From contig CP158635.1 in NCBI GenBank assembly GCA_050273025.1, forward strand, positions 9,362,001 to 9,426,000: 64,000 nt of DNA, written 5' to 3'. Numbering within the stretch: the first letter of the stretch is position 1; the number at the start of each line of letters is the position of its first letter. This document shows, in pieces, positions 4,790-58,030 of this stretch. This stretch comes from Cenococcum geophilum. Taxonomy: Eukaryota. The position numbers and the translations under genes are program-made. Under the pieces are notes generated by a model. The model ran no database searches and had not been told where the DNA came from. It was given only the letters and a program-made list of their open reading frames with translations.

Positions 4790-7700
4790 TGTTACGGAGT
4801 AAGTATAAGCGACGATAATATATAGCAAAGTAGATATTATTAAGCTATATATATAAACTGTGTGATAAGATCAAGACGTTGCGTAAGGAAAGAAGGTAGG
4901 AAAATGGGAAGAAAGGGCATATATTGTTGACTTGGTTACTTAGTTAATATATATATAGGGCAGAATAGGGTTTAAGTCGTGGACCTAGCAGAACTTAGTA
5001 GAATTTGGTGGAACTTGGTAAAATATGGCAGAATGCTATAGATTGCTATTAGATTGCTATTAGATTACCGTTAGATTGCTATTTCGCGGTTAGTCTTTAA
5101 TTGCTAAGTTGGTAAAAATAGGTGGACATGTGCAAGGTATTACGGGGGTGTCCCGTAATAGTACCCCCCTTTTAAACTTAAGCTTCTACGAGATAGGGCT
5201 ATAGTAGTTCTAGGTGGAGTTTATAAAAGTCTTTTATAGCTTATGTAAGTCCTACTAAGTTAACAGGTTCCTATAAGGGCTTAATAAAGCCTCTCTATTT
5301 TATAAGGTATATATACTAGTGTTTCCGTTTATTATACTTAATAATATAAATTCTTTTAATAAAGTACTTATTCTTACTATCCACTTTAATTAGTAGGGGA
5401 AGGTCTTATATCTATCTAGGCAGGGCGTCTAATATAGGGGTAGTAGGGTAGAGGACTGACGTATAGAATATAGGGTGGATTTTAACCGTATTAGGGAGCT
5501 TTAGTTAGTAGGCGTAAGAGAAAATAACCTTCTTAATCTTGTAAGGGCCAGCGTTCTTCTAATTAAGTTTCTTAGTAGGTCGTTTTATGTTTAGGTTTCT
5601 TATATCTAGCTAGATAAAGTTACTAATTTAATAGGCTAGTACTAGGGTTTATTTTTTATTCGCTGCGGCTTTATAGACAGATTAGGTCTATATTATTTTA
5701 TTAGTAAAGAACCGTTATAGTTCCTTTATCTTTTTTATAAATTTATTTACTTTTATAACTTATAAGGTGTAATAAGCGGGGCGAGGAACATTACTAAAAG
5801 GGTTAAAGCCTATTTATAGGTGCTAGCTATAATTGGCTAGGAATGGGGAGACCTTTATAGTTTCTAAGATGGAATTATTTACGGTAAACTTAGTAAATAC
5901 AAGCCAGTTAATCCAGTTATCTTATAAGTACGACGTGTATATCTAGATGTACTATTCTATTATAGCGTTTACACATTTTATTTAACTATCCGTTTTTAGG
6001 TGGTATGCTATAGATAATAGTGCTTTAATACGGAGTCGGGTAGTTAGTTCTTTTTAGAATATAGAGATAAACTAGTTGCCTCTATTGGAGATAATTGTTT
6101 TAGGGAGTCCGTAGAGTTTCTATACGTGATCTAAGAATAGTTAGGTAATAGTAGGCGTTAATATATTAAAGCAGGCAATTAAGTACCTTATCTTAGATAG
6201 TTGGTCTATAACTACTATAATGTTTATATAGCCTTTACTTATAGGGAGGTTAATAATAAAGTTAATTAAGATATCCTTCTATCTTCGGTCTAGAACAGGC
6301 AGTAGCTTTAAGAGGCCGTTGTACGTCTTATGCGAAGCTTTAGCTTATTAGTAGATATAGCAGCTAGAGATATACCTTCGTGTTATATTATATATATTTG
6401 GCTAATAGTATTCTTATTAGAGCAGTTCTAGGGTTTTTTCTTAGCTTAGGTGGCTGGCTACTGGTAGATCGTATATATGTTTAAGGAGCTTAAGCTTAAG
6501 TTTGTTATAGTTAGGTATAACTAGGCGGTTTTGGTAATATAAGCGGTTTCCGCGGGCTTTATATTTACTTAAAGAAATCTTTTTAGAGTATCTAATGCTA
6601 TTATGCATTAGTTTAAGCGTTTTCTGGATAAACTTATTAATTGGGTATTTATTAGCTATAATCTGTTTAATTAATTAATTAGTTATTTTAAGGACGTATA
6701 CTATAAGGTCTTTAGTGGGAGGGTTAAATAGTTTAGGGTAAAGTAGGGTCTAATTTTGGTAGGAGCGCGCTTCTTTTAGGGCTGGCGCGTCTTGCAAGCA
6801 TTAGGTTAGGGCGTTAGGCTTCTAACCTTAGACGCCTAGGCGGTATATAATTGAGAATTGGAAATGAGACAGATATTCTAACTAGCGGGCCTAATAATAA
6901 CTTAGCTGTTTCGTGGTTGTGAAGTACTATAGGTTTTTATAGTTGCTAAGGACTTTAATTAAAAATCTAGCGCCTTTTAGTTTAGGTTGCTATTGTTTAA
7001 AACATCTAATAATAGCTAATAATTTCTTATTGTAGATCTTGTAGTTGCATTTAGCTAAGTTTAGTTATTTTAAGAAGTATGCTATAGGGTGTAATACTCT
7101 ATCCTTATTATATTGAGATAGAATGCCTTTAGTAACGTAGTTAGATAAGTTGGCTTCTATAATACTTATTTGGTTTAGGTTAAAGTGTTAGAGTATAGGC
7201 GCAGTAGTAAATATAACCTTTAGATAGGTAAAGGCCTTCTTACATTCTTTATTAAAGATAAAGACTTTATCCTTTTAGGTTAAAGCTATAAGGGGTAAAA
7301 CTAGGGTAAAGAAGTTATTAATAAACCCTTAGTAGAAATTAGCAAATCCTATAAAGGCTTTTACGTCCTTAACGTTCTTAGGTTCTTGCTAGTTTATAAT
7401 TGCTTTAACTTTCTTTAGGTCCATTTATATACTATTTATAGAAATAAGGAGTCTAAGGTATAGAACTTCCGTTTTATAGAACTCGCATTTATTTATATCT
7501 AATTATAGACTAGCTCCGTGTAGGGCTTATAGGATAAGGTTAATATACTTTCGATGTTTGGTTAGGTTATTACTATATATTAGGATGTCGTTAATATAAG
7601 TAGTATAGAAGATGTTTAGGTAGGGGCGTAGGGTATTGTTTATATAATGTTAAAACGAGCTTAGAGTGTTTGTGAGGCTAAAGGGTGTTACTAAGTACTT

Positions 7701-10696
7701 AAATAGTCTATATTGGGTACGAAATGTAGTAAGCTATTTGTCTCCTTTTATAATATAAAGATGGTTAAATATAGAGATAATATTAAGCTTTATGTAGTAA
7801 TGAGCCTTACTTAGTTAGTTTAGCGTTTCTTATATTAATGGGATTGGATATTAGTTCTTAACGGTAACGGCGTTAAGAGCTTAGTAGTCTATATAGAAGT
7901 ATAGACCGCCGCTAGGTTTTTTAATAAAGATTACTAGTGCTGCTATAGGCGACGAGCTTGCTCTAATAAATCCTTTACTTAGGTTTTTATCTAAATACTT
8001 TTATAATACTTGGAGCTTATTTTGGGATATTTTATATAAGGGTTTAAATCTAGGCTGCTTTCCTTCTTTAAGTATAATCTTATAGTTGTATGGTTAGTGT
8101 TCCAGTAGCTTATTAGCTTTCTTTTATAAGAATGCATCTAGGCGATAATAATACTCTACTAGTACCTTTATGGTAGGGTTAGTGTGCTTCCTTAGTGCTA
8201 AGGCCTTCTTAATATCGGCTATTGTAATAGTGAAGATTATATGCTTGGGTTTCTTAGTAAGTTGCGCTAGTAGGGTAACTCTAATTATGTGGATATTTAG
8301 GGCGCCGAGGTTACTTAAATTGCCTATAGTTTCTTATATAGCTTCCTGTTTAGCTTTGGGGTTAGTATTAGGTATAGAGTTAGTATTAGATTTAGGTTTG
8401 GGTTCTTTAAATATGTTCTTTATAGTAGAGTACTAGTCCTTTTAGTACTTTTATGTGGTAAGCTTAAGCTTTTGCTTAGCGTGGGGTGGTGTAGTATTTG
8501 GGGTCTGCTTGTGGGGTTTAGTGAAATTTTCGGATCCTTAGTAGATATTGGTGGAAGTCTTATATTGGTGGAATTTGGTGGAATTCTCAGGCTAGTAGAT
8601 CTTGGTGGATTTTTTAGATTTTAGTTTTAGGTCTAAGTAGTAAGTTATAAGGTACTTCTACTTGTAATAGGAGGTAGTAAATAGAAGCTTAAGGTTGTCC
8701 TAATTAATGGTTACCTTATATAGCTTTATCTAGGGTTGTCTAAGAATTACTAAGTGATTTAGGGTGGTGATAAAGAGCCTAATTAGTTCTTTGTGGTTTA
8801 GGAATACTATATAGGTAATATAGCCTAAGACGGTGCGTTTATTATTAAATCTAAATACGTTAATGTGCCGGTTAAGGGGGGTTAGGGTAAAATTATTATC
8901 TTATATAAAGATCTTATTAATAAATCCTATGCCGCTGGCTCCTGTATTAATTAAGACTTAAGCACTAACCTATTAATTATTCTGCTATAGGCGGTAGTTA
9001 ACGGTTATACTATAATCCTAAGAGTTAGAGTTTGTGATATCTAAAGTATTTAATAAAATCTTAAGGTAGAGCCGTTCTGGAGAGCGACTTAGCTCTAGGA
9101 CCTTCCTTTTAGAGGTGATTAGGACGGAGTTCTTATAGCGTGTTAGTTGTAGTCTCGTCCTTATAAGTAATGCTTACTATATAACGTGTTAGAGCCGGAT
9201 AATAATTGGGGTTGGTGGATAGAGCTTAGTTAAGGTAATTGGTTACTTATACTAGTTATCCTTTTATATAATTAGGATAGTAGTATACCGCCTATACTAG
9301 GTGTTTAAATATTTATTTTAGGCAGGGGGATAGAGTAGTAACTTAAGATATAAGTATTGCTTCCGCACTTAAAATAAAGGCCATATTTAATATATTATTT
9401 ATATTTAGCAGATCCTTTTAGGGCGTAAGAGAGGGTTCTAGCGTTAATATCTATAGCGTCTAGGTCCTTACGGGTCTTAGACGGCTAGGGGGCAGAGTAT
9501 TAAGGTGTATATTTTAGGGTAAGGCGTAGTATATTATTATATAGGCCGTTAATAATATTGGCGTAGGTAGTAAGGGTATCTAGCAGTTTAACTCCTTTAG
9601 TTTAGAGTTTAAGGATTCTATTAGGCGATTAATTAAGGCGGGTTTATTTTATTTAGTCTCTTTAGTATAGTGGTGGAACTTAGTAAAGTATAATAGGAAG
9701 TTCTTAGAGCTATATATTTTCTTATTTAGTTTCCTTTATACTATTATAATTTGGTTAGGGTTGCTATAAGATACTTCTAGTATAGTAACTAGTTTTTTTA
9801 TAGTATTTGGCTGGAACGGGTATATAGTTTCCGCGGCGTCTTCTGTTAAATGGCTTATAATATAATATAGTTAACTATTAGGGGTGGGGTAGCGATTAAT
9901 ATTACCGTTTAGCTTGTTCTTAAGTTAGTTAAGAAAGGAGCGTAGTTTGCTCCTTTTACCTAAATAGGCGGGAGGATTAGGGAGACGTTTAGTGAGCTTT
10001 TTTATGGGGGCACTAATTGGCGAATTTAGGGTTAAGGAGCTAGTCTTAGACACGTCTTCTCTATTTAGTACTTATAGATTAACACTAGTAGGGATAGGTA
10101 GGGGCGACGGTGGGTTACAGTAGATCTCTTTAATTTCTTTTCTTAGGGATCCAATTATTTTTTTCGTGTTAAGCCTCTTATTAAGTAAGGGCATTTATAA
10201 AGGCCTATTGCAGGCCCTTTATTTATTTAGTAAATATGTTATATAAGTTAGTTATAAATATAGGGGCTTTTAGGTTGTTCTACATATTAGGCGGGGCGAG
10301 GTGGTATAGGTTTAATGTAATGTAGTGTTACGGAGTAAGTATAAGCGACGATAATATATAGCAAAGTAGATATTATTAAGCTATGTATATAAATTATATG
10401 ATGAGATTAAGACGTTACATAAGGAAAGAAGGTAGGAAAATGGGAAGAAAGGGCATATATTGTTAACTTGGTTGCTTAGTTAATATATATATAAGGTAGA
10501 ATAGGGTTTAGGTTATAGACCTAGCAGAACTTAGCAGAATTTAGTAGAACTTAGTAGAATATAATAGAATGCCGTAGATTGCCGTTAGATTGCTATTAGA
10601 TTGCCGTTAGATTGCTATTTCGCGGTTAGTCTTTAATTGCTAAGTTGGTAAAAACAGGTGGACGTATATAAGGTGTTATAGGGGTATCCTATAACA
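4790..10696 (-). mobile_element. Full-length Ty3/Gypsy family B element (5.9 kb), RIP-degenerate
   Basis: 371-bp LTRs at 4790-5160 and 10326-10696; TSD ACTAG (4785-4789, 10697-10701); reverse PPT at 5161-5172; minus-strand gag, PR, RT, RH, IN, chromodomain remnants. Confidence 0.96.
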
Positions 10697-41814: not shown

Positions 41815-42347
41815 TGTAACGGAACCTTGTAGCAGGAACTACAATAGGCTCATTATTAGGCTAGGTGTGTAGGTAATGTGAATTAAAGTTAACAATATAA
41901 TAATAACTAGTGGAGTAGTTGCCTAATAAATTAACTCTAATTATATTCTAAGAATTACTATAAGGAAGGAACTATCTAGGTAGGGACTAAGGGTCCTTAA
42001 ATACATAACCGTACTCCTATAAAATCCTCCTTATATATAATATATATATACTCTATTTACTCTATTATAGATTTTATAGATTTTATAGATTATATAGATT
42101 ACCTTATATAACCTTAGTTACCATTCCTTATTACATAGCTCTATCGGCTCTATCCTAGACCGTGCTCTAATTAACTAACTAGCTTTTTTTTAACTCTTCT
42201 CTAAGTAGTCGTAATATTGTACTTAAAGCGTCCGTAACATCATCTCCCTCCTCTCTATTTTTGTCCTTAAAGATTTCTAATATCTTTAAGTTATCTACTG
42301 GAGGTATAATATCCGTCTAATTAATTTGGTTAATATTATTACTTATT

Positions 42348-43010
42348 ATACCTAAAGCAATTTCTTCTTCTTTAACTGCTCGTTGTATTCGCACTATCGC
42401 TGCAATACTATCTCTTAGTGAGATTATACCGTCTCTATATTCTCGTTACTTAAAAAAGGGGTTAGTTTATATTACGTTGGCAAATCTATCTTCGTAATAA
42501 CTATTTTCTTACTTAGAGTATACTAAAGTAAATATTTATTTATCCTATAACGTTCGCTCTATCTCTAATACTAAATATACGCGACCTATTACTCTTAATA
42601 GTCGTCTAGTTCTTTAATTAATTTATCTTAGAGTCTTATATTTAATCTACTACTATATAACTAGATAGTAAACTATCTTAGGCTCTTACTAAGTTAAAAT
42701 GTTCTTATAATATAGAGCAGAAGGCTCTAAAGGCCTATATTATGGCGTCTGCTTAATTACTCCGTCTTAAGAAGGTTCGTAAAAAGGTGCGTTTTAAAGA
42801 ATAAAAACTTATAGAATAGGGTTTATAGGAACTTAGTAATAAAAGAATAGATTCTCTTTTAGCTAAAAAGGAAATAGATCTAAGTAGTTCGGCAACTACT
42901 CTTCTTAGGTCCCCCTTAGGTGGCTTATTCTTTAGCAATCCTTCTTTATTAATATTACCTAACCTAATCTCTTCTAATACTCCTATACCTTTCTTATAGC
43001 ATTCTTTAAA
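42348..43010 (+). pseudogene. Antisense accessory gene of family F copy 1, Zn2Cys6-like, RIPped
   Basis: TAY codons spaced CX2CX6CX13CX2CX8C at 42438-42548; later RLRKVRKKVR..EQ.L.E.GLQEL coiled-coil-like segment; start codon (ATA for ATG) and end are inferred. Confidence 0.65.
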
Positions 43011-44609
43011 TTCTCTAGTAATTCCTAAGTAGTCTTACTATAGCCTATCTACTTTACCTCGTACTATATTTTATCGTTAATATCTTTATAGCTAGCGATC
43101 TTTAAAACTTACTATTTATCTTCTTCCTATCTCTGCCTTATAAACTAGTGGCTTAATATTCCTATATACTAGCTCTAGAATTATAATATACTATATAGAG
43201 TAGATCTTTATTTTAGCTAATAGGTTTAACTTAAATATAACTAGTAAAATCCTCTAAATAATTTTAAAAGGTCCTAGTCTAACATAATTTAACTTTTTAC
43301 TTAGTTATCGACTTTTAAAATTTTTGTATAGTAGCTATACTTTATCTCCCTCCTTAAAATCTAGTCCCTTAGATCTCTTAGTGTTATAGTACTTTTTTAT
43401 TCTCTCTTATACTTTCTTTACTAATTCTATAAGGTCTATATAAAGATTTATTAATATCTTTATCCTTTCTTTAGCTATACTACTTATTTTCTTTACTTAT
43501 TATAGTAATAACAATATTCTTAGCTTATATCCATAATTTGCCTTAAATGGTAATATACCTATCCCTTCTTAAGGTGTTATATTATATGTAAACTATATAA
43601 TTAGTAGTAATAATACCTAATTATTCTGCGCGTAATTAATATAGTACCTTAAATACTGTTTTAGTATCTAATTTAATCTTTCTATTTAACCGTCTATCTA
43701 TAGATAATATATAGTAAAAGTTACTACTCTAACTCCTTATTCCGCTAAGAATACTTTCTAAAATACTACTATAAATCTTAAATCTCTATCTAATATAATC
43801 TTACTTAGTGCTCCGTGTCTTATAAACACTTCTTTAATATAGATTTTAGCGATATCTTCTACTAATATTTCTTCTATATACGCTATAAAGTACCCCCACT
43901 TTATAAGCTTGTCTACTATTACTAAGATTATATTATAATCTTATCCGGTAATAGGATCTCTTAATTTTAGCAACTTAATAATAAAGTCCTATAATATAAC
44001 CTCCTATAGTCTCTCTAATATCTTAATAGGTTATAGCCCTCTATATAGCTTATACCTTATTAGTTTATTCCTCTAGCAATCTAGATATTCTTTAGTAACT
44101 TTTCGCGCTAAGCCCTAGATTCTATTAATAATATACTCCTCCTAAAGTCTTAATACTAGGCTTATAGCTTTATTATATCCCTAAATTAGTCCCCTATAAA
44201 ACTCTTTTATAAATTACTCTGCTATACTTCTTAGGATATACTTTACTTCTTAATATTTGTATATATCCATTTATAGATCTTCTAATTATACTTCTAGAAT
44301 TCTTTATACCTAAAAGCTTTTTAGTAATTTGTAAACTTTTTCTAGTTCTTCCTAAGTTACTATAATCTTTAGATAATTAAACCTACATCAGGAAATTTTT
44401 TTTTGGGGTCGTTGTTGCGGTTTGCGGCAAATTGCCGCAAACCGTACGGTTGCGGCAGATGTATATGGTCGATAGCAATTTGCGCAAAACGCACGTTTTG
44501 TAACAAGTTTGCAGCACCCTAATAGCAATTTGCGCGTTTTGTAACAAATTTGCAGCATCTAATAGCAAATTGCGGCAAAACGCTACCCCATAAATAAATA
44601 GTGCGCAAA

Positions 44610-44696
44610 CTGTACGAATTGTACAAATTGTAAAAACTGTACGAATTGTACGAATTGTACGAATTGTACGAATTGTAAAAACTGTACAAATTGTAA
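44610..44696 (+). repeat. 9-bp tandem repeat (TGTACGAAT)n
   Basis: Directly visible, about 9 units. Confidence 0.9.
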
Positions 44697-44858
44697 CTAT
44701 ATAAATTATAATTATATTACATAATAACCAAATTATCACATATTTCCATAGATTTCTGTAGTATACTTTTAAATATATTTATATTATAACTATATAAAAT
44801 GTAGAGCTATCTACTTTAGGCGTTAAGGGGGAAGCCTCTCGCGGAGGCTCTAAATCAT

Positions 44859-44980
44859 CTGCCTACCTACCTGCCTGCCTGCCTGCCTGCTTGCCTACCT
44901 GTCTGTCTATACCTACCCGTCTATGCCTACCTATCTGTGCCTACCTGTCCGTGCCTACCTGTCTGTGCCTACCTGTCTAT
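44859..44980 (+). repeat. (CTGC/CTAC/CTGT)n microsatellite-like tract
   Basis: Directly visible. Confidence 0.88.
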
Positions 44981-45049
44981 GTCACCTTGATTCGATCGAT
45001 CGATCGAATCGTTTATCGTGTTCGCTGGCTGGTCGTTCGAACGGTTGTC

Positions 45050-45740
45050 GTGTGGCTCTGGCGACGGTCATGTGGCGATGACGATGGTCGTCTGGCTCTG
45101 ACGGTCGTCTAGCTCTGGCGACGGTCATCTGGCTCCGGCGACGGCCGTCTAGCTCTGACGACGGTCGTCCAGCTCTGACGACGGTCGTCTAGCTCTGGCG
45201 ACGGTCATCTGGCTCCGGCGACGGTCGTCTAGCTCTGACAACGGTCGTCTAGCTCTGACAACGGTCGTCTAGCTCTGGCGACGGTCATCTGGCTCCGGCG
45301 ACGGCCGTCTAGCTCTGACGACGGTCGTCCAGCTCTGGCGACGGTCATCTGGCTCCGGCGACGGTCGTCTAGCTCTGACGACGGTCGTCTGGCTCTGACG
45401 ACGGTCGTCTGGCTCTGACGGTTGTCCAGCTCTGGCGACGGTCATCTGGCTCCGGCGACGGTCGTCTAGCTCTGACGACGGTCGTCTGGCTCTGACGACG
45501 GTCGTCTGGCTCTGACGGTTGTCCAGCTCTGGCGACGGTCATCTGGCTCCGGCGACGGTCGTCTAGCTCTGACGACCGTCGTCTGGCTCTGACGACCGTC
45601 GTCCAGCTCTGGCGACGGTCATCTGGCTCCGGCGACAGTCGTCTGGCTCTAACGACGGTCGTCTAGCTAACGGTCGTCTAGCTCTGGCGACGGTCGTCTG
45701 GCTCCGGCGACGGTCGTCTGGCTCCGGCGACGGTCGTCTG
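45050..45740 (+). repeat. 20-bp minisatellite, consensus GACGGTCGTCTAGCTCTGAC, with higher-order repeats
   Basis: About 34 units; 97-bp higher-order period at 45421 and 45518. Confidence 0.95.
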
Positions 45741-45906
45741 CTGGCTGTCGTTCTGGTGTCTTCCTAGGTAGGGAGGATGTAAGGAAGGGTAAAAAATGAG
45801 GTGGCTACCTAGGTGTATATAGGGGGTATACTTGGCAGAGGCACGTGTAGAGGCTATCGGGAATATAGCGGGGACCCGATAGTAATGTGTCGCGCGCACA
45901 CACAAA

Positions 45907-46731
45907 GGCTTTGTGTAGAGCTTCGTGTAGGGCCTCCGTACGCAGAGCTTCGCGCAGAGCCTCGTGTAGAGCTTCGCGCAGAGCCTCGTGCAGAGCCTCC
46001 ATATGTAGAGCTTCGTGTAGAGCTTCGTAGAGCTTTGTGCAGAGCTTCGTGTAGAGCTTCGTGCAGAGCCTTGTGTAGAGCTTCGTGTAGAGCTTCGTGC
46101 AGAGCCTCGTGCAGAGCCTCTATATGCGGAGCTTTGTGTAGAGCCTCGTGTAGAGCCTCGTGCAAAGCTTTGTGTAGAGCTTCGTGTAGAGCTTCGTGCA
46201 GAGCTTCGTGCAGAGTTTCGTGCAGAGCTTCGTGCAGAGCTTCGTGTAGAGCCTTGTGCAGAGCCTCTGTACGCAGAGCTTTATGTAGAGCCTCGTGTAG
46301 AGCCTCGTGCAAAGCTTTGTGTAGAGCTTCGTGTAGAGCTTCATGCAGAGCTTTATGTAGAGCTTCGTGCAGAGCTTCGTACAGAGCTTCGTGCAGAGCT
46401 TTGTACAGAGCTTCGTGTAGAGCCTTGTGCAGAGCCTCTGTACGCAGAGCTTTATGTAGAGCCTCGTGTAGAGCCTCGTGCAAAGCTTCGTGTAGAGCTT
46501 CGTGCAGAGCTTCGTGCAGAGCTTCGTGCAGAGCTTCGTGCAGAGCTTCGTGCAGAGCTTCGTGCAGAGCTTCGTGCAGAGCTTCGTGCAGAGCTTCGTG
46601 CAGAGCTTCGTGCAGAGCTTCGTGCAGAGCTTCGTGCAGAGCTTCGTGCAGAGCTTCGTGCAGAGCTTCGTGCAGAGCTTTGTGCAGAGCTTCGTGCAGA
46701 GCTTTGTGTAGAGCCTCGTGCAGAGCCTCTG
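45907..46731 (+). repeat. 12-bp minisatellite, consensus CGTGCAGAGCTT
   Basis: 15 perfect units at 46501-46680; degenerate units to the left; 171-bp higher-order duplication at 46241 and 46412. Confidence 0.96.
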
Positions 46732-46999
46732 CATCAGGAATTTTTTTTTGGGCACGTTGTTGCAAGCGAAAATCGGGGTCTGCAAAACCTGCAGGCGTAA
46801 GTCGCAATTTTAGCATTTGCGGCAATTTGCAGCAATTTGCTACAAACACATAGATAGGGTAGACGCGTGCATAGGTAGCCTATGTGTTTGTAGCAAATTG
46901 CTGCAAATCGCCGCAAATTGCCAAAATTGCGACTTACGCAGGTTTTGCAGACCCCGATTTTCGTTTGCAACAACGAGCCCAAAAAAAAATTTCCTGATG
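46732..46999. mobile_element. 268-bp foldback MITE forming the right end of the TIR element
   Basis: Inverted arms of about 120 bp beginning CATCAGGAA, separated by a loop of about 25-30 bp. Confidence 0.88.
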
Positions 47000-49568
47000 T
47001 AATTAATCCATCTATGTCTTTTTATAGTAAAGCCCCTAATAGCTTTTATTATTTTATAGTTTAGCTTTTTAACTTAGAGTGTCTGCTCGCATATTATCTA
47101 TACCCTTAGTATACTAAATTTTGAAATAGTATTCTATAAGTATCTTTACCCATCTAACCTATCTTTAGTTAAGTTCCTTTATTATTAAAAATCCTATTAG
47201 GTTCTTATAATCTATCTTAACTATAAATAGTTTCTCTATGCCTTATAAGAATGCTCTTTATTTCTTTAATACTATAACTATACCTAATAACTCTTTATTA
47301 TAGATATTATAGTTTAACTCTAGTAGTATTATCTTTTAACTATAATATGCTATTAGGTGCTATCTATCTAGATGCTTTTATATAAAGTATACCCCTAGTA
47401 TATAATTTAATACATCTATTTTTACAACCGTCTTTAGTCCTAGTTAATAGATCTTAAAAACTAGCTCCTAGGTAAACAACTCCTTAACTTATTTAAATAG
47501 CTTCTACTATTTCTTTCCCTATACCCATAGTTCTTCCTTCTTTATTAATTGCGTAAATAGCTTAATATCCTTTAACTACTGCGCTATAAACCTTATATAG
47601 TAATTATAAAACCCTAAAAACAATTTTAACTGCGTAACGTTTTCCGGTTCTTACTAATTCACTATAGCCTTAATCTTCTTTAGATCTATACTAAGTTTGC
47701 CTAGTTTAATAATAAATCCAATAAAATTGGTCTTCCTAGTAAAGAACTTGTATTTCTTAATTATTACTAGTATTTGTTTTTCTTATAGTCTCTTTAAGAC
47801 CTATTTAACGTATTCTCTATATTCTTCCTTATTTATTAAATAGATAATAATATTGTTAAAATATACTATAACAAATTCATCTAAGTATTCTCCTAATATA
47901 TTATTAATACACTTCTAGAACGTTACTAGTGCGTTTATAAGCCTAAATTGTATAACTAATAGTTTATATAGTCTCTCTTTTAACCTAAAGGCTGCTTTTT
48001 ATTTATTGCCTTCCTTAATTCTAATCTAATAGTACGCCCATCTTAAATCTATCTTTATAAAGATTTAAGCGTTGCCTATCCTGTCTTAGATTTCGCTAAT
48101 TAAGGGTAAAGGATACCTATCCTTCTTAGTAATGCTATTTAACTACCTATAGTTAATATATAGCCTTAGTTTGCCATTTTTCTTTAATATAAATAGTACT
48201 AGATAACCCGCTAATGACTATAATAGTCTAATATATCCCTTTTATAGATTTTCCTAGATAAACTCTTTTAATGCTCTACCTTCCTCTTTAATAAGCTTAT
48301 AGATTAAAAAGAACCTTAGACTTATTCCTAGTTCTAATTCTATTTTATAGTCCTATACTATATACTCTAATAGCTTTTTACTTTCCGGTAACTATAGTTT
48401 CTTACTATACTTATAGTATCTCTTTAGTATATAACTTAAGCCTCGCTTAGTTTCCTTATATATTACTCTAACTTAGTACTATACTAACTTAGCTTATTAT
48501 TACATCTTACGGCGTTAAATATCCTTAATATTAACCTAACCTATAACCTAATTAATCTTTAGATTATATTCCTGTAACTAAGGCATTCCTAGTACTGCCT
48601 TATTATTCCCTAATAGTAATATATTAAAAGACATCTTAATTTATCTCCCTTTAATAGTTAACTAAATAGGTCCTATTTTAAGATTAATAATACCTCCTCT
48701 ATAGGCTATTAGGTCTCCTAAAATCGTTACTAATAAGTAAGAATACTCCTTTTTCCTATATAGTAACCCCATTTTTTTAACTACTACTAGCAAAATATAG
48801 TTCCTTATTACTCCACTATCTATTAATACCTTAAACTGTTAATCTTACCACTTAACTTATAAATTTAGGTATTGTCCTTAAATTCCTTTAAGGGTCTAAG
48901 GCTCTACTATTAGTTCCCTCTAGTCCTATAGGCCTCTACTTTTCCCAACTATTAGCTACTTAATCCTATATATACTTAGTCTAACTTTAGCCAATACTTA
49001 GTTCGCTTTTTATCTTTAATATACTATAGACACATATTCTTTAGGTATTCCCACTACTATTATTTATCTAGTGTAACGGAACCTTATAGCAGGAACTACA
49101 ATAGGCTCGTTATTAGGCTAGGTGTATAGGTAATATAAATTAAAGTTAACAACGTAATAATAACTAGTAGAGTGGTTGCCTAATAGATTAACTTTAATTA
49201 TATTCTAAAAATCACTACAAGGAAGGAACTATCTAGGTAGGGACTATAGTCCTTTAAATACACAACCGTACTCCTATAAAATCCTCCTTATATATAATAT
49301 ACGTATACTCTATCTACTCTATTATAGATCCTATAGATTATATAGATTATATAAATTATATTATATAACCTTAGTTACCATTCCTCGTTATATAGCTCTA
49401 TCGGCTCTATCCTAAACCGTACTTATATTAACTAACTAGCTTCTTTTAACTCTTCCCTAAGTAGTTATAACATTATACTTAAAGCGTTTGTAACACCATC
49501 TCCCTCCTTTTTATCTTTGTTCTTAAAGATTCCTAATATCTCTAAGTTGTTTACTAGAGGTGTAATAT

Positions 49569-52500
49569 TGTAACGGAATTCCCTAGAAGGTACATATCAG
49601 ATAAAACAGGAGGAGGTCTCATCTATGTTTTAGAAGGAGGTCTTATCTATATTCTATCTACGTCCTAGAAGACACGGTCAGACAGATAAGGGGTAAAGGG
49701 TTTTGCTAGCGTCTTAGAAGGATTATATAGGGAGCTGGTTCTCCTCTAGAGAAGAACTAGCAATTAGTCTCTAAATAGAAGTAGTTAAAAGCATTTATCC
49801 TTTAATACATAAAACTCATTCTACCTTTAACTTACCTTCTATTTACCTTTAACTTACCTTTTACTTACCGGTGACACTGTTAATTAGATAGTTATACGTT
49901 TCGGTTAAGCTGGTCTCTTACAATTTTAATCGCTTACAATCCGTTAGGAACGTACGGCTATTAATTAACGATAATAAACTATACTCCTATACCCCACGAA
50001 GCAACGCCCTCACCGTAAGAGGCTCAAAGAGTCTCCCTAGAGGAGCGCATTCCCTCTTCCTATAAAGAAGCCACGGCTAGTCTGTCTAACCTTGCGAGAC
50101 CCTTAGGAATAATTACCGCTAGGGAGTTATTAAAGCGGTCGCTATACGAGACCCTATAAAAAATAAAGGAGTTAAAGATATAATTAAGATAAGCATATTA
50201 AGACTACTAAGAATAATTATAAGGACAATTAGGGGAAGTATAGACACCCCAGATACGAAGCGGACTTAAAGGGGTAACACCACACTATGCTATAACGTTA
50301 GAAAAACCTAAATTCCGTATAAAGGAACCTAATAAGTACTATAGTAATAGTCTTTAGAACTGCAATCGTTTTATCCAATAATGCGAAACCAAGTTTTAGC
50401 TAGATCCAAAACGATACTCTAACGAGTATAATTAGACACTAATTACTTTTACCTTCCTACGTGGCACCGTTAAAAGTTTATAGATATGCTATAAGAAGAA
50501 ACTTACTATACTTTTTAAATTTAGCAAACTTAGGACCTAGTTAGTTAATTAGGTCCAAGACCCTACTAATTAAAGGATAGACTATAACCAGCAATACCAC
50601 AACGCTAAATAGCGGGATAGTTAGACTATAGTCTAGTTTATAAACTACTTAAAAGAACTAGAAGATAATATACCCTACTTAAATCTATAGGATAACGCTA
50701 TATAACTTCACCAGCTACTCGCTAAGCTATAACCTAAGATTTAACAGGCCATATAAGAGAAGGGCGAAATTCCTACCTCTTAAAAAAAGCTTATCTCTAA
50801 AGCTACTCGGATTAAAAGTACTAAAAGAGACTATTTAGGCAAGCGAAAGAAATAAGACGCCAATAATAAAGAGCGTAGGACTAGACCTAGCTTTAATAAT
50901 AGGGGCAGATTCCAACCTAACCGCTCTACGGAAGGATAACGTAAGTAGGCCTCGCAGCCCTAGAGCAACGCTAGTTAACCCTAAAATAATAATAGGCAGA
51001 GACCTAATCCGTAGAAGGGGAACTGGGAGATACGCACCTATTATAACTACGGCAAGAAAGGCTACATAAGCCGCTTCTACTAGCAGAAGAAGTAAGAGTC
51101 GGCCTAATTAGGAAAAGAGACAGCCTAGTAAATCTTTACTCCCTTATACTAGGCTAGCAAGAGAAAAAGAAAGTAAACTACCGCATAGTTATTCCTGTCT
51201 CTATTTAAGTTAATAATAAATAGGTAACGTAAGACTGCCTTATAGACAGCGGCGCGAGTATAGGGTTTATTTCTTAATTACTAGTAAAAGAATTAGATTT
51301 AGATCTTAGCGGCTTATAGGTGCGCACTATTTAAAATATTAGAGGCCACTAGATTCCATACTATAGGGAATAGGCTTTTTCCATGGCCAGCTAGGACCGC
51401 GATAGTCTATAAAATACATAGGAGATACGCTTCTATACCGCAGAAATTAAGGGGTATAACCTTATTTTGGAATACCTATAGCTTCGCCAAGTCAATCTAG
51501 ACATTAATTGGCCTTTAGCCTTATATTGACATCGGAAGTCTTAACCGCGCATTATAGTTAAAAATTAAAAGACTTTCTTAAACTATATATAAGAAGAAGG
51601 GTGGGTATATACTATATATGCCACTCTTAATACTAAGAACGGGGACATAGGATATTTATTTTTAGATGTCCGGCTATACGCAGTTAAGGAACTAGAGATT
51701 CTACAGGAATATATAGACTTAGAAGATATTTCTAGTAAAGAGGCTACATAAACCTTACCTAACCCTATATTAGTTAAGCATAAAATAGACACAGGGGATA
51801 AATAACCTCTTTTTAGACCACTGTATAACCTATCAGAAAATAAGCTAGCGGTACTGCGTTAATATATAATAGACAATCTTTAGAGAGGATAGATTTAGCC
51901 CTCTATAAGCCTAGCAGGGGTACCAATTATATTTATACCCAAGAAATACAGGACCCTTTACCTTTATATTAACTATTAGGCGCTAAATAAGATTACTATA
52001 AAGAATTGCTACCCGTTACCCTTAATAGGGGAGCTTATTAATAGGCTGTTAGGCGTAAAAATATTTACAAAATTAGATTTAAAAGATGTATACTATTAAA
52101 TCCAGATTAAAGCTAGCGATAAGTAGAAAACGGCGTTCTAAATATAGTACGGCCACTTTAAGTACCTAGTAATGCCATTTAGGCTTACTAACGCACCAGC
52201 GATATTTTAGGCCTATATTAATAAGGCATTATTAGGCCTATTAGACACGATATATGTGGTCTACCTTAATAATATTATAGTTTACTCTAATAACTACGAA
52301 GTATATACGTACTACGTATAAATAGTACTAGAAAGACTACGGGAATATAAGCTCTATATAAACCTAAAAAAAGTACATATTCTATGCTACTAGCATTAAT
52401 TTTTTAGGCTTTATTATTAGCGTTAACGGAGTATTAATAGAGAAAAGTTAGGTGGACGCTATTAGGGAATAGCCCTACCCCATAATATTTAGAGAAGTAT

Positions 52501-55500
52501 AGTTTTTTTTAGGCACGGCGAACTTCTACCGAACGTTTATTGTTTACTACTTATAAGTAATACTCCTAATTACTAATCTACTAAAAGGATCTAAGAATAG
52601 TAGGAAGTTAGAACCCTTTATATTTAGGAAAGCTATTAAGTAGGCTATAGACCGGTTAAAGAATTTGTTTATGTTGGCGCCTATCTTAATATACTTCTGC
52701 TAGGAGCTATATATATACCTTAAAACGGATATATCCGGCTTTGCCCTAGGGGCAATTATATCTTAATTAAAAGACGGAAAATAGTATCCTGTGGCGTTTT
52801 AGTTAAGGAAAATAACCCCTATAGAGTAGCGTTATATAACGCACGACTAAAAGCTACTTACGATAATTACAGTAATAAAGCACTGGCGACATTATTATAT
52901 AGGAAGCAATTATCCTATTAAAGTCCTTACAGACCATAATAACCTAGAATACTTTATAACTATAAAGGTGTTAAGCAGTTAATAAGCAAGATAGGTAGAG
53001 GCACTATTGTAGTACGACTTTAAAATTACGTACTGCCCAGGAAAGATAAATCCTACTAATAGGTTATTAAGATGTTTAGATTATAAGACAGGGAGAATCT
53101 AGGACAGCATAGGGGAAATAATCCCTATATTGCAAAATTTGCTTAAAAAAAAAGAAGACTCTTTCCCTAAAACTATAGAATTTTATAGTAGGGCAAAGGT
53201 CCTAGTAATGCAGCTATAAAGCGACACAATTATAGAGCCGTAGGATATAGTTATAAACTAGGTTATAGACTAAGCAGATATTATAAAGTTAGCATACCCT
53301 AGAATTAGCAAGAATTCTACGGGATATACTAGAAATATTACGGTACCTTTAACTTAACGGCATATTAGCTACAAGTTTTCAGATCTAAGGGGGATAGGCA
53401 AGATACCTATCTGTAGCGTAGCATACTATACAATAGTAGGAGAATCTGCTGGTACTAATAGTTTAAAACGTCTTATACTACGCCTTAAGTCTATAATAGC
53501 GGCAGGTAAAATAAAAGCAAGTAATCTATATAAAACCTTTCTGGATCTTCTTCTTTAAGCTTAATAAAGGGACACCTTCGCCTCTAAGGAGAGATGGAAA
53601 AATATAGTAGAGACTAACTTAGCCAGAGTTACTAAGAAGCTATAGTAGTAAGACTAAAAGGGTCTGTTGCGCTTTAAGGGTGCTATATATATCCCAAAGG
53701 ATTAAGCAATTTAAGACGAAATTTTAAAGGTCTTCCACAACAACCCTTTTAGGGGTCACTACGGTACCAATAGAACCCTTAAGGCCGTTTAAAGGAAATA
53801 CTTTTAGAATGGAATATTTAAAGAAGTTAAGGACTATATATTAAGGTATAATACGTACTAAAGAATATAGATATCCAGGTATTACCTATATAGCGAGTTA
53901 TTAGTGCTTCCTATTCCGTAGGGACCCATATTAGAATTAATAATAGATTTTATTATAGGCTTACCCCCTACTAAGATAAAAACTAGAGAGGTTACTAACG
54001 CTATCCTAGTAATTATTAACAGGTATATAAAGTTTTTAGGATACTTTACTATTATAATAACGATTACGGTAGCAGAACTAGCAGACCTGTTTTTAGAATA
54101 GTAGCTTTTATTTAGCACGCCAAGGGGAATTATATCTAATAGAGGTACCGTATTTAACAGTACATTTTAGTCTGTATTCTGTCTCTTATTAAAAATATAG
54201 TAAAGGATAAGCACTACTTTCTACCTATAAATAAATGGGCAAACAAAGCGTCTAAATGCGTTGTTAGAACACTACCTCCACTACTATATTAATTATTAAC
54301 AGGATAATTAGATATTATAGTTAGCTTTAACGTAGCACGTGTATAATATAAGCATCTATAGTAGTATTAAAATGACCCCTTATAAAGCATTGTTTGGGGT
54401 AAAAGCAAATAACCCCTAGAACGTTAAGGACATTATTTCTAAAAGAGAGGCACTAGCGGCGTCCAAAAGAATTAAGCAAATGAGAATTTGTAGAGAGGAA
54501 CTTAAAAAGCACTTACTAGACGCCCAGGCTATATAAAAAAGGTACTATAACAAAAAACATATACTAAAAGAATTTAAGATAGGAGACGAAGTCTTACTAT
54601 TTATAAAAAATATCTAAATAAAACGCATTAAGAAGAAGCTGGATTATCGGTAGCTTAGACCCTTTAAAATAGTTAAGAAAACTAAAAAAAACCAAGCCTA
54701 TAAATTAGAATTACTAAAATCTTATCTAATATATCCTATATTTTATATTTCCTTACTAAAGCTATACTAAAGAAGAGATAGTACGGAACTACCCCTACCT
54801 AGTAAAATTAATAGGGAACTGGAATGGAATATAGAAGACATTCTAAACTAAAGATAGCGCTAGAAAAAGCGCGAATTTTTAGTTTATTAGGAAGAATACT
54901 CCTAGGTACATAACAGTTAGAAACCTAAGGAGTACCTTTAGCCGGAATATAATACCGCAATTAAAACCTTCCTAAGAACTAAAGGTAAAGACTTAAAAAT
55001 GGTTCCGGATATGCCATAGATAAAGCAACAGGAAAGACCCTATAAATTAAAACCATAGAATTAAGTATAGGCATTAAGAACGGAAACGTTTCGCTATTAT
55101 AATAGGGATCCTAAAATCCTATAAGAGAAAGCCTATAGGGATCTATAGGAGAACCACTAGGGATACTATTTAAAGAAGACGCTAGTTAAGAAGGAGCAGT
55201 AGTACTATAAGAAGTAGCCTTAGGGATTCAGAAAGATCCCCTAGGGATAAAAGGAGAGTATCTGGCCCGGCACCGGAGATATATAGTAGAGTTAATAGTA
55301 CAAAGAGGAGCAAAAGAACAGCCTATAAAGAATTAGAAATTTTAAGAAATTATAAGGCACCTATAGGAATACCACCCATTTATCATATATAGGGATTATA
55401 GTAGTGCACTATATTTATATAGATTATCACTAAAGCTTAGAATAAAGGCATCCCTAAAGTATAAAGTTAATTCCCAATAATAGGGCATCCTAGAGGCACC

Positions 55501-57298
55501 CAAGAGGCACTATATAAAGCTATTCTATAAGAAGAAGGAAAGAGCTAGGTAATAACTTAAACACTAGCAGTAGTAATAGGAGCCTCCTCTTCCATCTTAA
55601 TATTATTATTAACGGTATTATTAGCTCCTCTATCCCCAGAAGCATTAGCACTTCTACTAATATTCTTCTTAAAATAACGGGTACTAAAAGGACTAGTACG
55701 GGCGGGAAACTAGCGAGAAGAACGTTTATCTTAACCTTTATCGCTATCCTTAGTATCCCTAGGTTCCAAATCGGCGTCTAAGTAGGGATTAGAGAGATGT
55801 TAGCTAAAGGAGTTAGTATAGTTCCTAAGCGAGTTACTAGAGAAACTTACCTAGCTAAAATAGCCCGCGTAAGAGTACGAATATTATTATTAATAAGGAC
55901 GAGCTGTTCGCATATACACTCCTAGATACTATATATCTAAGAACGTTGCGTCTCTATAGTAGTGGAAACCCTTATAGAACTAAAGAGTTTATAAGTAAGG
56001 GAAGACACCTTCTATCCCTACCTATTACTATTAAAATATTAGCGGAAATCTTAGATGGCGCGTTAGAGCCTATAAGTCTTATATATATAGATAGTGGGGA
56101 TCTAGTATAATTAGCAAAATCTAAAATAGGACGGAATGGGAAATACCAAAATGTAGGTCTTTCTCCTACTATAACAATAGGAGTACTTAGATTTATTTTC
56201 GCTAGAGTAAGGCATCTTATAAACGTGGGAAGGATCCTATATAAGAGTATAAATGCAGTAATAATAGCATTTTAGGGAAACTGCCATAGGAGTAATAAAT
56301 GCTGTCTAGGGCGTTACCGGGAGATTAATAACACTGCCGCTGGTCTAGGGACGCGTAGAAGGACTATAAGCCATTATAAGAGAATACTCTAAGAAGTTAG
56401 CATTGTTATAAGAGATAAGGTGGGGATCCTATTACTTATAAACGTGTTATAAAAAGAGAATAAAGTAGCTATAAAAGAATAGCTAGAGACACGGAAGCTA
56501 AAAGTAGGGATATAAAGGAAATAGTTTGCTAAAAGATAAGACAAATAGTGTTGTTAATAAAAAGACGCGTAAAAGGCAACAGCTTATAAACTGGAAGAAA
56601 ATTAAAATAAAGACATTATTATTAGAATCTATTTTAGGTAAATAGGGATAGTAGCTTATAAACGCGTTACATAGAACAACCTCTAGATTAACTTATAACA
56701 AACTCTTATAATAAGAAAGGTAAATCCTATCCAATTTTTATTATTATTATTTTAGTTCTATTATAAAGGTATTATAAGAAACTATAGTAGGAGAAGAGTA
56801 AAGGAACTAAGGATAAAGTAAGGTTCCACGCTAGTAAAGAACTAGCTATAAGCCGCATTATAAAGTACCTTTCTACTAAGAATTTCCCTAGTAGTTTTAG
56901 CCGGAACTCTATAAAAGCTTAGTAAAGGCAAAGTCTTAGAGAACTAAAACCCTTAAAGGGGAGGCAATTGTAACGGAATTCCCTAAAAGGTACATATTAG
57001 ATAAAACAGGAGAAGGTCTTATCTATATTCCATCTACGTCCCAAAAGACATAGTCAGATAGATAAGGGGTAAAGGGTTTTACTAGCGTCTTAGAAGGATT
57101 ATATAGGGAGCTAGTTCTCCTTTAGAGAAGAACTAGCAATTAGTCTTTAAATAAAAGTAGTTAAAAGCATTTGTCCTTTAATACATAAAACTCATTCTAC
57201 CTTTAACTTACCTTTTATTTACCTTTAACTTACCTTCTACTTACTAGTAACACTGTTAATTAGATAGTTATACGTTCTAGTTAGGCTGGCCTCTTACA
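49569..57298 (+). mobile_element. Full-length Ty3/Gypsy family G element (7.7 kb) with a long 3' region
   Basis: LTRs at 49569-49922 and 56969-57298; TSD AATAT (49564-49568, 57299-57303); gag CCHC near 51040, DSGA protease near 51245, RT, RH, IN, chromodomain to about 55000; PPT AAAGGGGAGG. Confidence 0.96.
55557..56374 (-). pseudogene. Antisense accessory gene of family G: RIPped, two introns, six-Cys Zn-cluster-like N-terminus, about 242 codons
   Basis: ATG at 56374; CX2CX11CX11CX2CX6C (de-RIPped); intron GTATTT..GCTAAT..TAG at 56146-56102; intron GTAAGT..ACTAAC..TTTAG at 55850-55804; single frame after splicing ending in an acidic MEEEAP tail. Confidence 0.75.
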
Positions 57299-57338
57299 AA
57301 TATCCATTTAATTAATTTGGTTAATATTATTACTTATT

Positions 57339-58030
57339 ATACCTAAAGCAATTTCTTCTTCCTTAACCCTTTATTATACTTGCACTATCGCTATAATATT
57401 ATCTCTTAGTGAGATTATACTATCTCCGTATTCTTACTGTTTGAAAAAAGGGTTAGTCTATATTACGTTAGTAAACCCATTTTCGCAACAACCGTCCTCT
57501 TATTTAAAGTGCACTAAAGCGAATATTTATTCGTCCTATAATGTTTGCTCTATCTCTAATGCTAAATATACGCGGCCTATTACTTTTAATAGTTATCTAA
57601 TTCCCTAATTAATTTGTCTTAAGGTTTTATATTTAATTTACTGCTACGCGGCTAGATAATAAACTGTCTATTACTTTAGCGGAACTATACTGTTCTTATA
57701 ACGTAGAATAGAAGGCAGCTAATACTTAGCAAAGGGCTCTTAAGTCTTATCTTATAGCGTCCGCTTAGTTAATCTGTCTTAAGAAGGTTTATAAAAAGGT
57801 CCGCTTTAAGGAGTAGAAACCTATAAAATAGGGTTTATAGGAACTTAGTAATAAAAGAACGGACTTTCTTCTAAGAAAGAAGGAAATAAATCTAAGTAGT
57901 TCGGCAACTACTCTTCTTAGGTTCCCCTTAGGTAACTTATTCTTTAGTAATCCTTTTTTATTAATACTACCTAACCTAATCTCTTCTAATACTCCTATAC
58001 CTTTTCTATAGCGTTTTTTTAAATTTTCTA
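57339..58030 (+). pseudogene. Antisense accessory gene of family F copy 2, Zn2Cys6-like, RIPped
   Basis: Paralogue of 42348-43010; Cys2 (TGT) and Cys5 (TGC) are intact in this copy. Confidence 0.68.

Follow-up and report, generated by a model that had tools for sequence, protein, structure and literature searches.

Can a long terminal repeat (LTR) retrotransposon carry a third gene, behind pol and on the opposite strand, for a protein that acts on the element itself? The question is raised by a 64,000-nucleotide stretch of Cenococcum geophilum DNA (GCA_050273025.1, contig CP158635.1, positions 9,362,001 to 9,426,000), hereafter the window, which is a nest of LTR retroelements within a 178-Mb, 7-contig genome. 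Its minus strand holds two copies, copy 1 and copy 2, of family F, a fungal chromodomain-bearing Ty3/Gypsy retrotransposon (chromovirus type) with a third gene. A sequence-only reading of the window had proposed an antisense gene with Gal4-like cysteines and a helix. We find that 42348-42999 on the plus strand is a copy, killed by repeat-induced point mutation (RIP), of a real gene, which runs antisense in the interval from the chromodomain end of pol to the 3′ LTR. The gene is judged real because of intact database relatives, splice joints in RNA, codon-position bias and a conserved context, and the same evidence supports the proposal. The parts of the gene in copy 1, and its second copy, are as follows.

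42304..42357, plus strand: intron 1, 54 nt, GT..AG; joint in RNA runs X3 and X8, retained in X1.
42348..42576, plus strand: first coding segment, N-terminal extension and cysteine cluster; lowest stop share of the six frames, tblastn to database proteins P0120 and P0088.
42438..42548, plus strand: six-cysteine motif C-x2-C-x6-C-x13-C-x2-C-x8-C; all six codons TAY in copy 1.
42577..42631, plus strand: intron 2, 55 nt, phase 1; RNA joint mapped from the homologous copy L091, donor AT in copy 1.
42632..42999, plus strand: second coding exon, long helix at about 42634-42830, then tail; tblastn, seven in-frame stops in copy 1.
57339..58011, plus strand: copy 2 of the antisense gene; cysteine motif from 57429, intron 2 at about 57568-57622, five in-frame stops.

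The layout is thus an optional intron 1, an N-extension of ~30 residues, a six-cysteine module, intron 2, a helix of ~75 residues and an acidic-hydrophobic tail, with the helical segment continuing in a frame shifted relative to the first coding segment. Across genomic copies the stop share of the first segment's frame is 0.020; copy 1 has in-frame stops there at 42495 and 42498. Both window copies are dead, with 5-9 in-frame stops, no ATG and most cysteines changed, and every one of 61 genomic copies carries 2 to 11 in-frame stops. The candidate starts at 42348 and 42426 both read ATA in copy 1, and ATG occurs there in 2/61 and 5/61 copies, respectively. The terminal stop codon (42997-42999) is kept in 60/61, and the frame closes there and not at 43010, the end proposed earlier. 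Copy 1 differs from copy 2 by 104 transitions and 15 transversions, and the RIP signature is strong across the whole window (TpA/ApT = 1.4-2.1).

Intact relatives exist in protein databases. An HMMER search with the first exon returned 75 relatives, 73 of which start with Met, and a profile search added further ones, including P0120 and P0088. These two keep all six cysteines at the x2, x6, x13, x2, x8 spacing; their first exon runs directly into the helix, and the exon junction falls at the predicted point. By tblastn, their two halves fall on 42357-42584 and 42715-42993 in different frames. All six positions are covered by 139 of 171 database proteins, where 831 of 834 cells hold Cys or Tyr, and eight proteins hold six Cys. 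The protein is about 200-220 residues long, P0120 being apparently cut short at residue 152, and the intact spliced relatives are about 60% identical to each other. Hence intact relatives encode six spaced cysteines followed by a helix of ~75 residues. A more remote group, made up of proteins P0074, P0153 and P0154 at about 30% identity, shares this spacing and matches DUF3716 weakly.

Transcription was examined on L091, so that the RNA evidence concerns this homologous copy and not the window copies. At least half of L091's words are held by 20 of 24 listed RNA runs, and four runs (X1, X3, X8 and X21) were aligned to it. Contigs of all three metatranscriptome contig runs, from three studies, match L091 with no differences. 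In all three a 55-nt intron is skipped with GT..AG on the antisense strand (L091 joint 1228->1284, window 42577-42631). An intron after the cluster, suspected earlier from ATACGC in place of GTACGC, is therefore real. The upstream 54-nt intron is skipped in X3 and X8 and retained in X1, and read depth is zero just past the transcribed unit. In the raw-read run X21, nothing aligned on the cluster region of L091 and no joints were seen. Transcription of the antisense gene, on the strand opposite to pol, yields a discrete unit of about 0.8-0.9 kb from which two small introns are spliced. In X3 and X8 the contigs start within the LTR of L091, 21-23 nt from its end (from record lengths; contigs cannot fix a start), and the transcript start is probably at the inner (U3) end of the 3′ LTR, near 42216 in the window.

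The transcribed stretch of L091 (868-1757; G000:C7, about 816170-817060), identical in the contigs of the three studies, is itself a broken gene copy, with two in-frame stops and with ATG missing from both candidate starts. The L091 unit is an expressed pseudogene or non-coding RNA. L091 alone among the 61 genomic copies has a GT donor at intron 2, and a search with the spacing pattern found it to be the one family F copy with all six codons TGY among 56 genome matches. At about 5000-8400 it also holds an insertion with transposase-like frames, whose motif we take to be hAT-type.

Intron 1 has its GT in 60/61 and its AG in 56/61 genomic copies. It contains the upstream candidate start (42348), so that splicing would yield a shorter form starting just before the first cysteine; depending on whether the intron is kept or removed, translation would begin at 42348 (long form) or at 42426 (short form). 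P0120 begins like the long form, and P0088 appears to correspond to an mRNA with both introns removed. Because the N-extension is under selection, the long form is probably produced.

Selection was assessed from transversions alone, because RIP makes transitions only; of 141 loci, 135 entered the count for exon 1 and 90 that for exon 2. In exon 1, 27/60 third codon positions vary by transversion versus 14/120 first and second positions (p=1e-6; such p-values are optimistic, as codons were mapped via a protein alignment and the copies are related). The corresponding counts are 16/19 versus 12/38 in the N-extension and 19/34 versus 15/68 in exon 2. Among single members of nine families, transversions by codon position number 126/66/272. 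The antisense gene was under purifying selection across related families.

The context is conserved as well. Among the best 80 of 185 metagenome loci, taken from three assemblies, 10 were too short; an antisense integrase tail lies within 0.5 kb in 69 of the 70 long enough and is absent in one. At the intron 2 donor position the 80 loci read GT in 26 and AT in 53. Exon 2 is displaced by one base in 55/56 loci, and the first in-phase AG comes at 55 nt in 51/56.

The cysteine codons were examined in 60 mapped genomic copies (the best 30 loci from each of two DNA-similarity searches, the two window copies included). In frame from 42348 they lie at 42438, 42447, 42468, 42510, 42519 and 42546, and read TGY in 11, 29, 1, 5, 44 and 9 of the 60, the others being TAY except for one TTT. 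TGY thus appears in some copy at all six positions, including the four for which the two window copies gave no such reading. At the remaining two, TAY in copy 1 does stand against TGT or TGC in copy 2 (42447, TAC vs TGT; 42519, TAT vs TGC). This difference had been taken as direct evidence of cysteines altered by RIP, a claim that does not hold: of 28 other trinucleotide columns that are at least 90% TAY/TGY, 21 also have TGY in some copy. TAY/TGY polymorphism is ordinary RIP and by itself no evidence of cysteines, and the two-copy argument alone is weak because the control columns behave alike. The exact spacing occurs twice in the window (the two copies) versus 0.07 times in 30 Markov controls, the spacing having been chosen after the fact; a loose Cys/Tyr spacing occurs seven times versus a control mean of 3.5 (range 0-6). 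A look-alike Cys/Tyr motif at 56185, in the neighbouring element G, was rejected by the same test.

What would the protein look like? The predicted model has a predicted local distance difference test score (pLDDT) of 82, with a short helix after each CxxC. The 20 Foldseek matches listed, of 23, are all Zn2Cys6 proteins (such as Hap1, Put3, Gal4, AlcR, Pho7, Leu3 and Ppr1), weak at E of at least 0.32, and the best PDB sequence match is Ppr1 (E=0.56). The general pattern CxxC-x6-C...CxxC-x6-8-C is present in the eight six-cysteine database proteins. The cysteines probably coordinate two zinc ions, in a fold of the Zn2Cys6 type. As in the Zn(II)2Cys6 factors Gal4, Ppr1, Put3, Hap1, Leu3, AlcR and Pho7, there are two CxxC pairs, a 6-residue first loop, a short helix per pair and then a dimerising helix (predicted). 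Unlike them, the family F product has a 13-residue middle loop and often Gly at the usual basic recognition position, is only about 200-220 residues long, lacks a middle homology region, has an antiparallel predicted helix and is encoded by a retrotransposon.

The helix spans residues 77-151 in the P0120 model at a pLDDT of about 90-99. Homodimer prediction scored 0.51 versus 0.00 for the best of three controls, and the dimer runs agree in at least 91% of contacts at a pLDDT of at least 78. The score mark was reached by 21/30 solved homodimers and 0/23 monomers; on eukaryotes it was reached by 17/29, but by 1/7 without an older solved relative. From the modelling, homodimer formation by the helix is quite probable. 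In the model the interface is antiparallel over residues 75-150, pairing for example 133 with 94 and 136 with 90; Gal4/Ppr1-type factors form a parallel coiled-coil dimer beside the cluster. Of the basic coiled-coil-like dimerisation segment proposed earlier, the long helix and a predicted dimer stand, whereas the charge is balanced rather than basic (17 D/E and 18 K/R in P0120 77-152) and the predicted dimer is antiparallel. The P0088 tail (182-239) has 12 D/E, 3 K/R and 12 F/W/Y/L/M in 58 residues, a composition by which it might tentatively be an effector or activation segment.

The best explanation, to which we give an even chance, is a small dimeric zinc-cluster trans-acting regulator of the element with predicted DNA binding. 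Transcription of the antisense mRNA would start in the 3′ LTR, at its U3 end, the zinc-cluster dimer would bind sites in the LTR or the interior of its own element, and the bound regulator would recruit transcription or block silencing through its tail. For this whole chain, a DNA-binding regulator that recognises LTR or internal sites of its element and either raises transcription or protects the element against silencing, the chance falls slightly short of even. More tentative still is the fullest version, in which the product of an alternatively spliced antisense mRNA, an antiparallel coiled-coil dimer bearing a divergent Zn2Cys6 module, would act on the LTRs as trans-activator, anti-silencer or end-bridging factor, and so be a chromovirus-encoded sequence-specific DNA-binding factor. 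Several results weigh against a regulator of this kind. Pfam PF00172 gives 15.6 and 13.6 bits, below the gathering cut-off of 21, and the window copies have no match. PROSITE PS00463 has a middle loop of 5-12 residues and a basic residue four after Cys2; the pattern matches 0/75 relatives and 0/8 six-cysteine relatives. The Gal4-like spacing seen earlier is thus confirmed as a six-cysteine spacing and lies outside the formal Zn2Cys6 definitions. In the single LTR examined, CGG is not in excess and no binding site was found.

Alternatively, the protein could serve as a structural adaptor and not as a transcription regulator: with zinc clusters at opposite ends, the antiparallel dimer would link two DNA sites (the two cDNA ends, for instance) or else anchor the integration complex on chromatin next to the chromodomain. 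The antiparallel predicted interface would keep the clusters well separated, Gal4-type dimers have a much shorter helix, and the antisense frame runs into the chromodomain end of pol. However, this rests on the model, in which the apparent truncation of P0120 at residue 152 may bias the register, and the acidic-hydrophobic tail better suits an activator; we consider the adaptor unlikely. Equally unlikely is an anti-silencing role in which the protein would bind RNA or the host's silencing proteins in place of a specific DNA site, its zinc module merely resembling Zn2Cys6. It would fit the failure of the Pfam and PS00463 tests, the frequent Gly at the recognition position and the weak DUF3716 (PF12511) matches in 4/24 aligned relatives (best E=0.01, below cut-off; none in P0120 and P0088), a domain also found in REP9 genes. 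Yet the Foldseek neighbours listed are all DNA-binding Zn2Cys6 proteins, and the third position after Cys2 is Lys in 128/160 relatives (some perhaps RIP products).

That L091 is non-coding, yet transcribed and spliced in three studies, would suit a captured host transcription-factor fragment kept as a passenger, or an antisense RNA that functions with an incidental frame. This is very improbable, being largely refuted by the third-position bias across nine families, in both exons and the N-extension, and opposed by the fixed position and intron length and by intact spliced relatives that are about 60% identical to each other. Chance Tyr/Cys spacing in AT-rich RIP debris, to be expected about 3.5 times per window in its loose form and exemplified by the failed motif in element G, is ruled out: the RNA is spliced and intact relatives exist, and the tblastn placement and third-position bias also oppose it.

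The surrounding elements in the window are these.

41815..42239, minus strand: 3′ LTR of F copy 1, TG...CA, 425 bp; repeat with 49072-49495.
42240..42256, minus strand: polypurine tract of F copy 1, beside the LTR and just inside the element.
42968..43568, minus strand: end of pol, with integrase tail, SH3-like domain and chromodomain; Pfam on a homologous copy, tblastn to the window.
49072..49495, minus strand: 3′ LTR of F copy 2 (repeat), separated from its antisense gene by element G.
49569..57298, plus strand: Gypsy element G, target duplication AATAT, inserted into intron 1 of the antisense gene of copy 2.

Family F has the chromovirus order of RNase H, integrase and chromodomain, TG..CA LTRs and a polypurine tract. 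In the pol frames of a homologous copy, Pfam finds RT_RNaseH (2e-28), SH3_Tf2-1 (4.6e-11) and then Chromo (0.012, below cut-off); the Integrase_H2C2, rve and Chromo matches are weak and the domain order is Gypsy-like. At least the last ~30 nt of pol overlap the end of the antisense frame. Element G inserted a few bases past the GT donor of intron 1 in copy 2, splitting the gene from its LTR, and copy 2 resumes at 57299. The antisense (minus) strand of element G, which holds the rejected motif, has at about 56035-56245 a second frame almost free of stops (stop share 0.011 in 30 copies), and element G may carry a different antisense open reading frame (ORF). Copy 2 apparently inserted into pol of copy 1 at 49071, nesting the family in itself, with the remainder of copy 1 outside the window. 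The pol of copy 1 is also interrupted at 44385-46997 by an insertion with 17-bp inverted repeats starting TA and two GC-rich tandem-repeat blocks (45047-45740 and 45908-46730), probably a non-autonomous terminal inverted repeat element.

The layout has precedents. Position, orientation and presence in most copies are those of the antisense ORFs between pol and 3′ LTR known as aORF-3R or brtn. The brtn of Boty (2011) is described as an antisense ORF of unknown function at this place in a fungal chromodomain-bearing Gypsy element (PMC7264820, PMC4227169, bioRxiv 10.1101/2021.04.13.439636). By the published description of the layout (PMC7264820, PMC4227169), the family F gene resembles it in position and orientation; the accounts of brtn in these citing papers, as far as they go, mention no cysteines, zinc cluster, coiled coil or introns, whereas the family F gene has introns and six Cys. 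No named Botrytis protein is among the database matches to the antisense gene product. Plant aORF-3R ORFs (Grande, RIRE2, Retand and PvRetro13), reported as conserved within families and of unknown function (PMC7264820), share position and orientation, but they belong to plant non-chromovirus lineages and no sequence link is expected. DUF3716 is reported in REP9-1 and REP9-2 of a Zymoseptoria DNA transposon (PMC8232023); like the family F relatives these carry a small fungal transposon-borne domain, but the transposon class differs and the matches are below cut-off. In the literature searched, no paper reports a zinc-cluster protein from an antisense ORF of this type, which is no proof of absence. 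The layout is already in print; the candidate fold and function were not found in print.

The usual picture of an LTR retrotransposon is gag and pol and nothing more, with transcription factors supplied by the host. The antisense ORF behind pol now has an RNA-backed exon structure, a selection signal, and a candidate fold and dimer, so that its role can be tested with natural intact proteins. If true, the proposal would give retrotransposons an equivalent of the accessory regulators of retroviruses, based on the typical fungal transcription-factor fold. Family F is abundant in the genome, a first look having given 3,217 candidate places for the antisense-gene stretch (about 3,200; 40 were scored), and an element-encoded regulator, if true, might be relevant to how a family can expand like this in spite of RIP.
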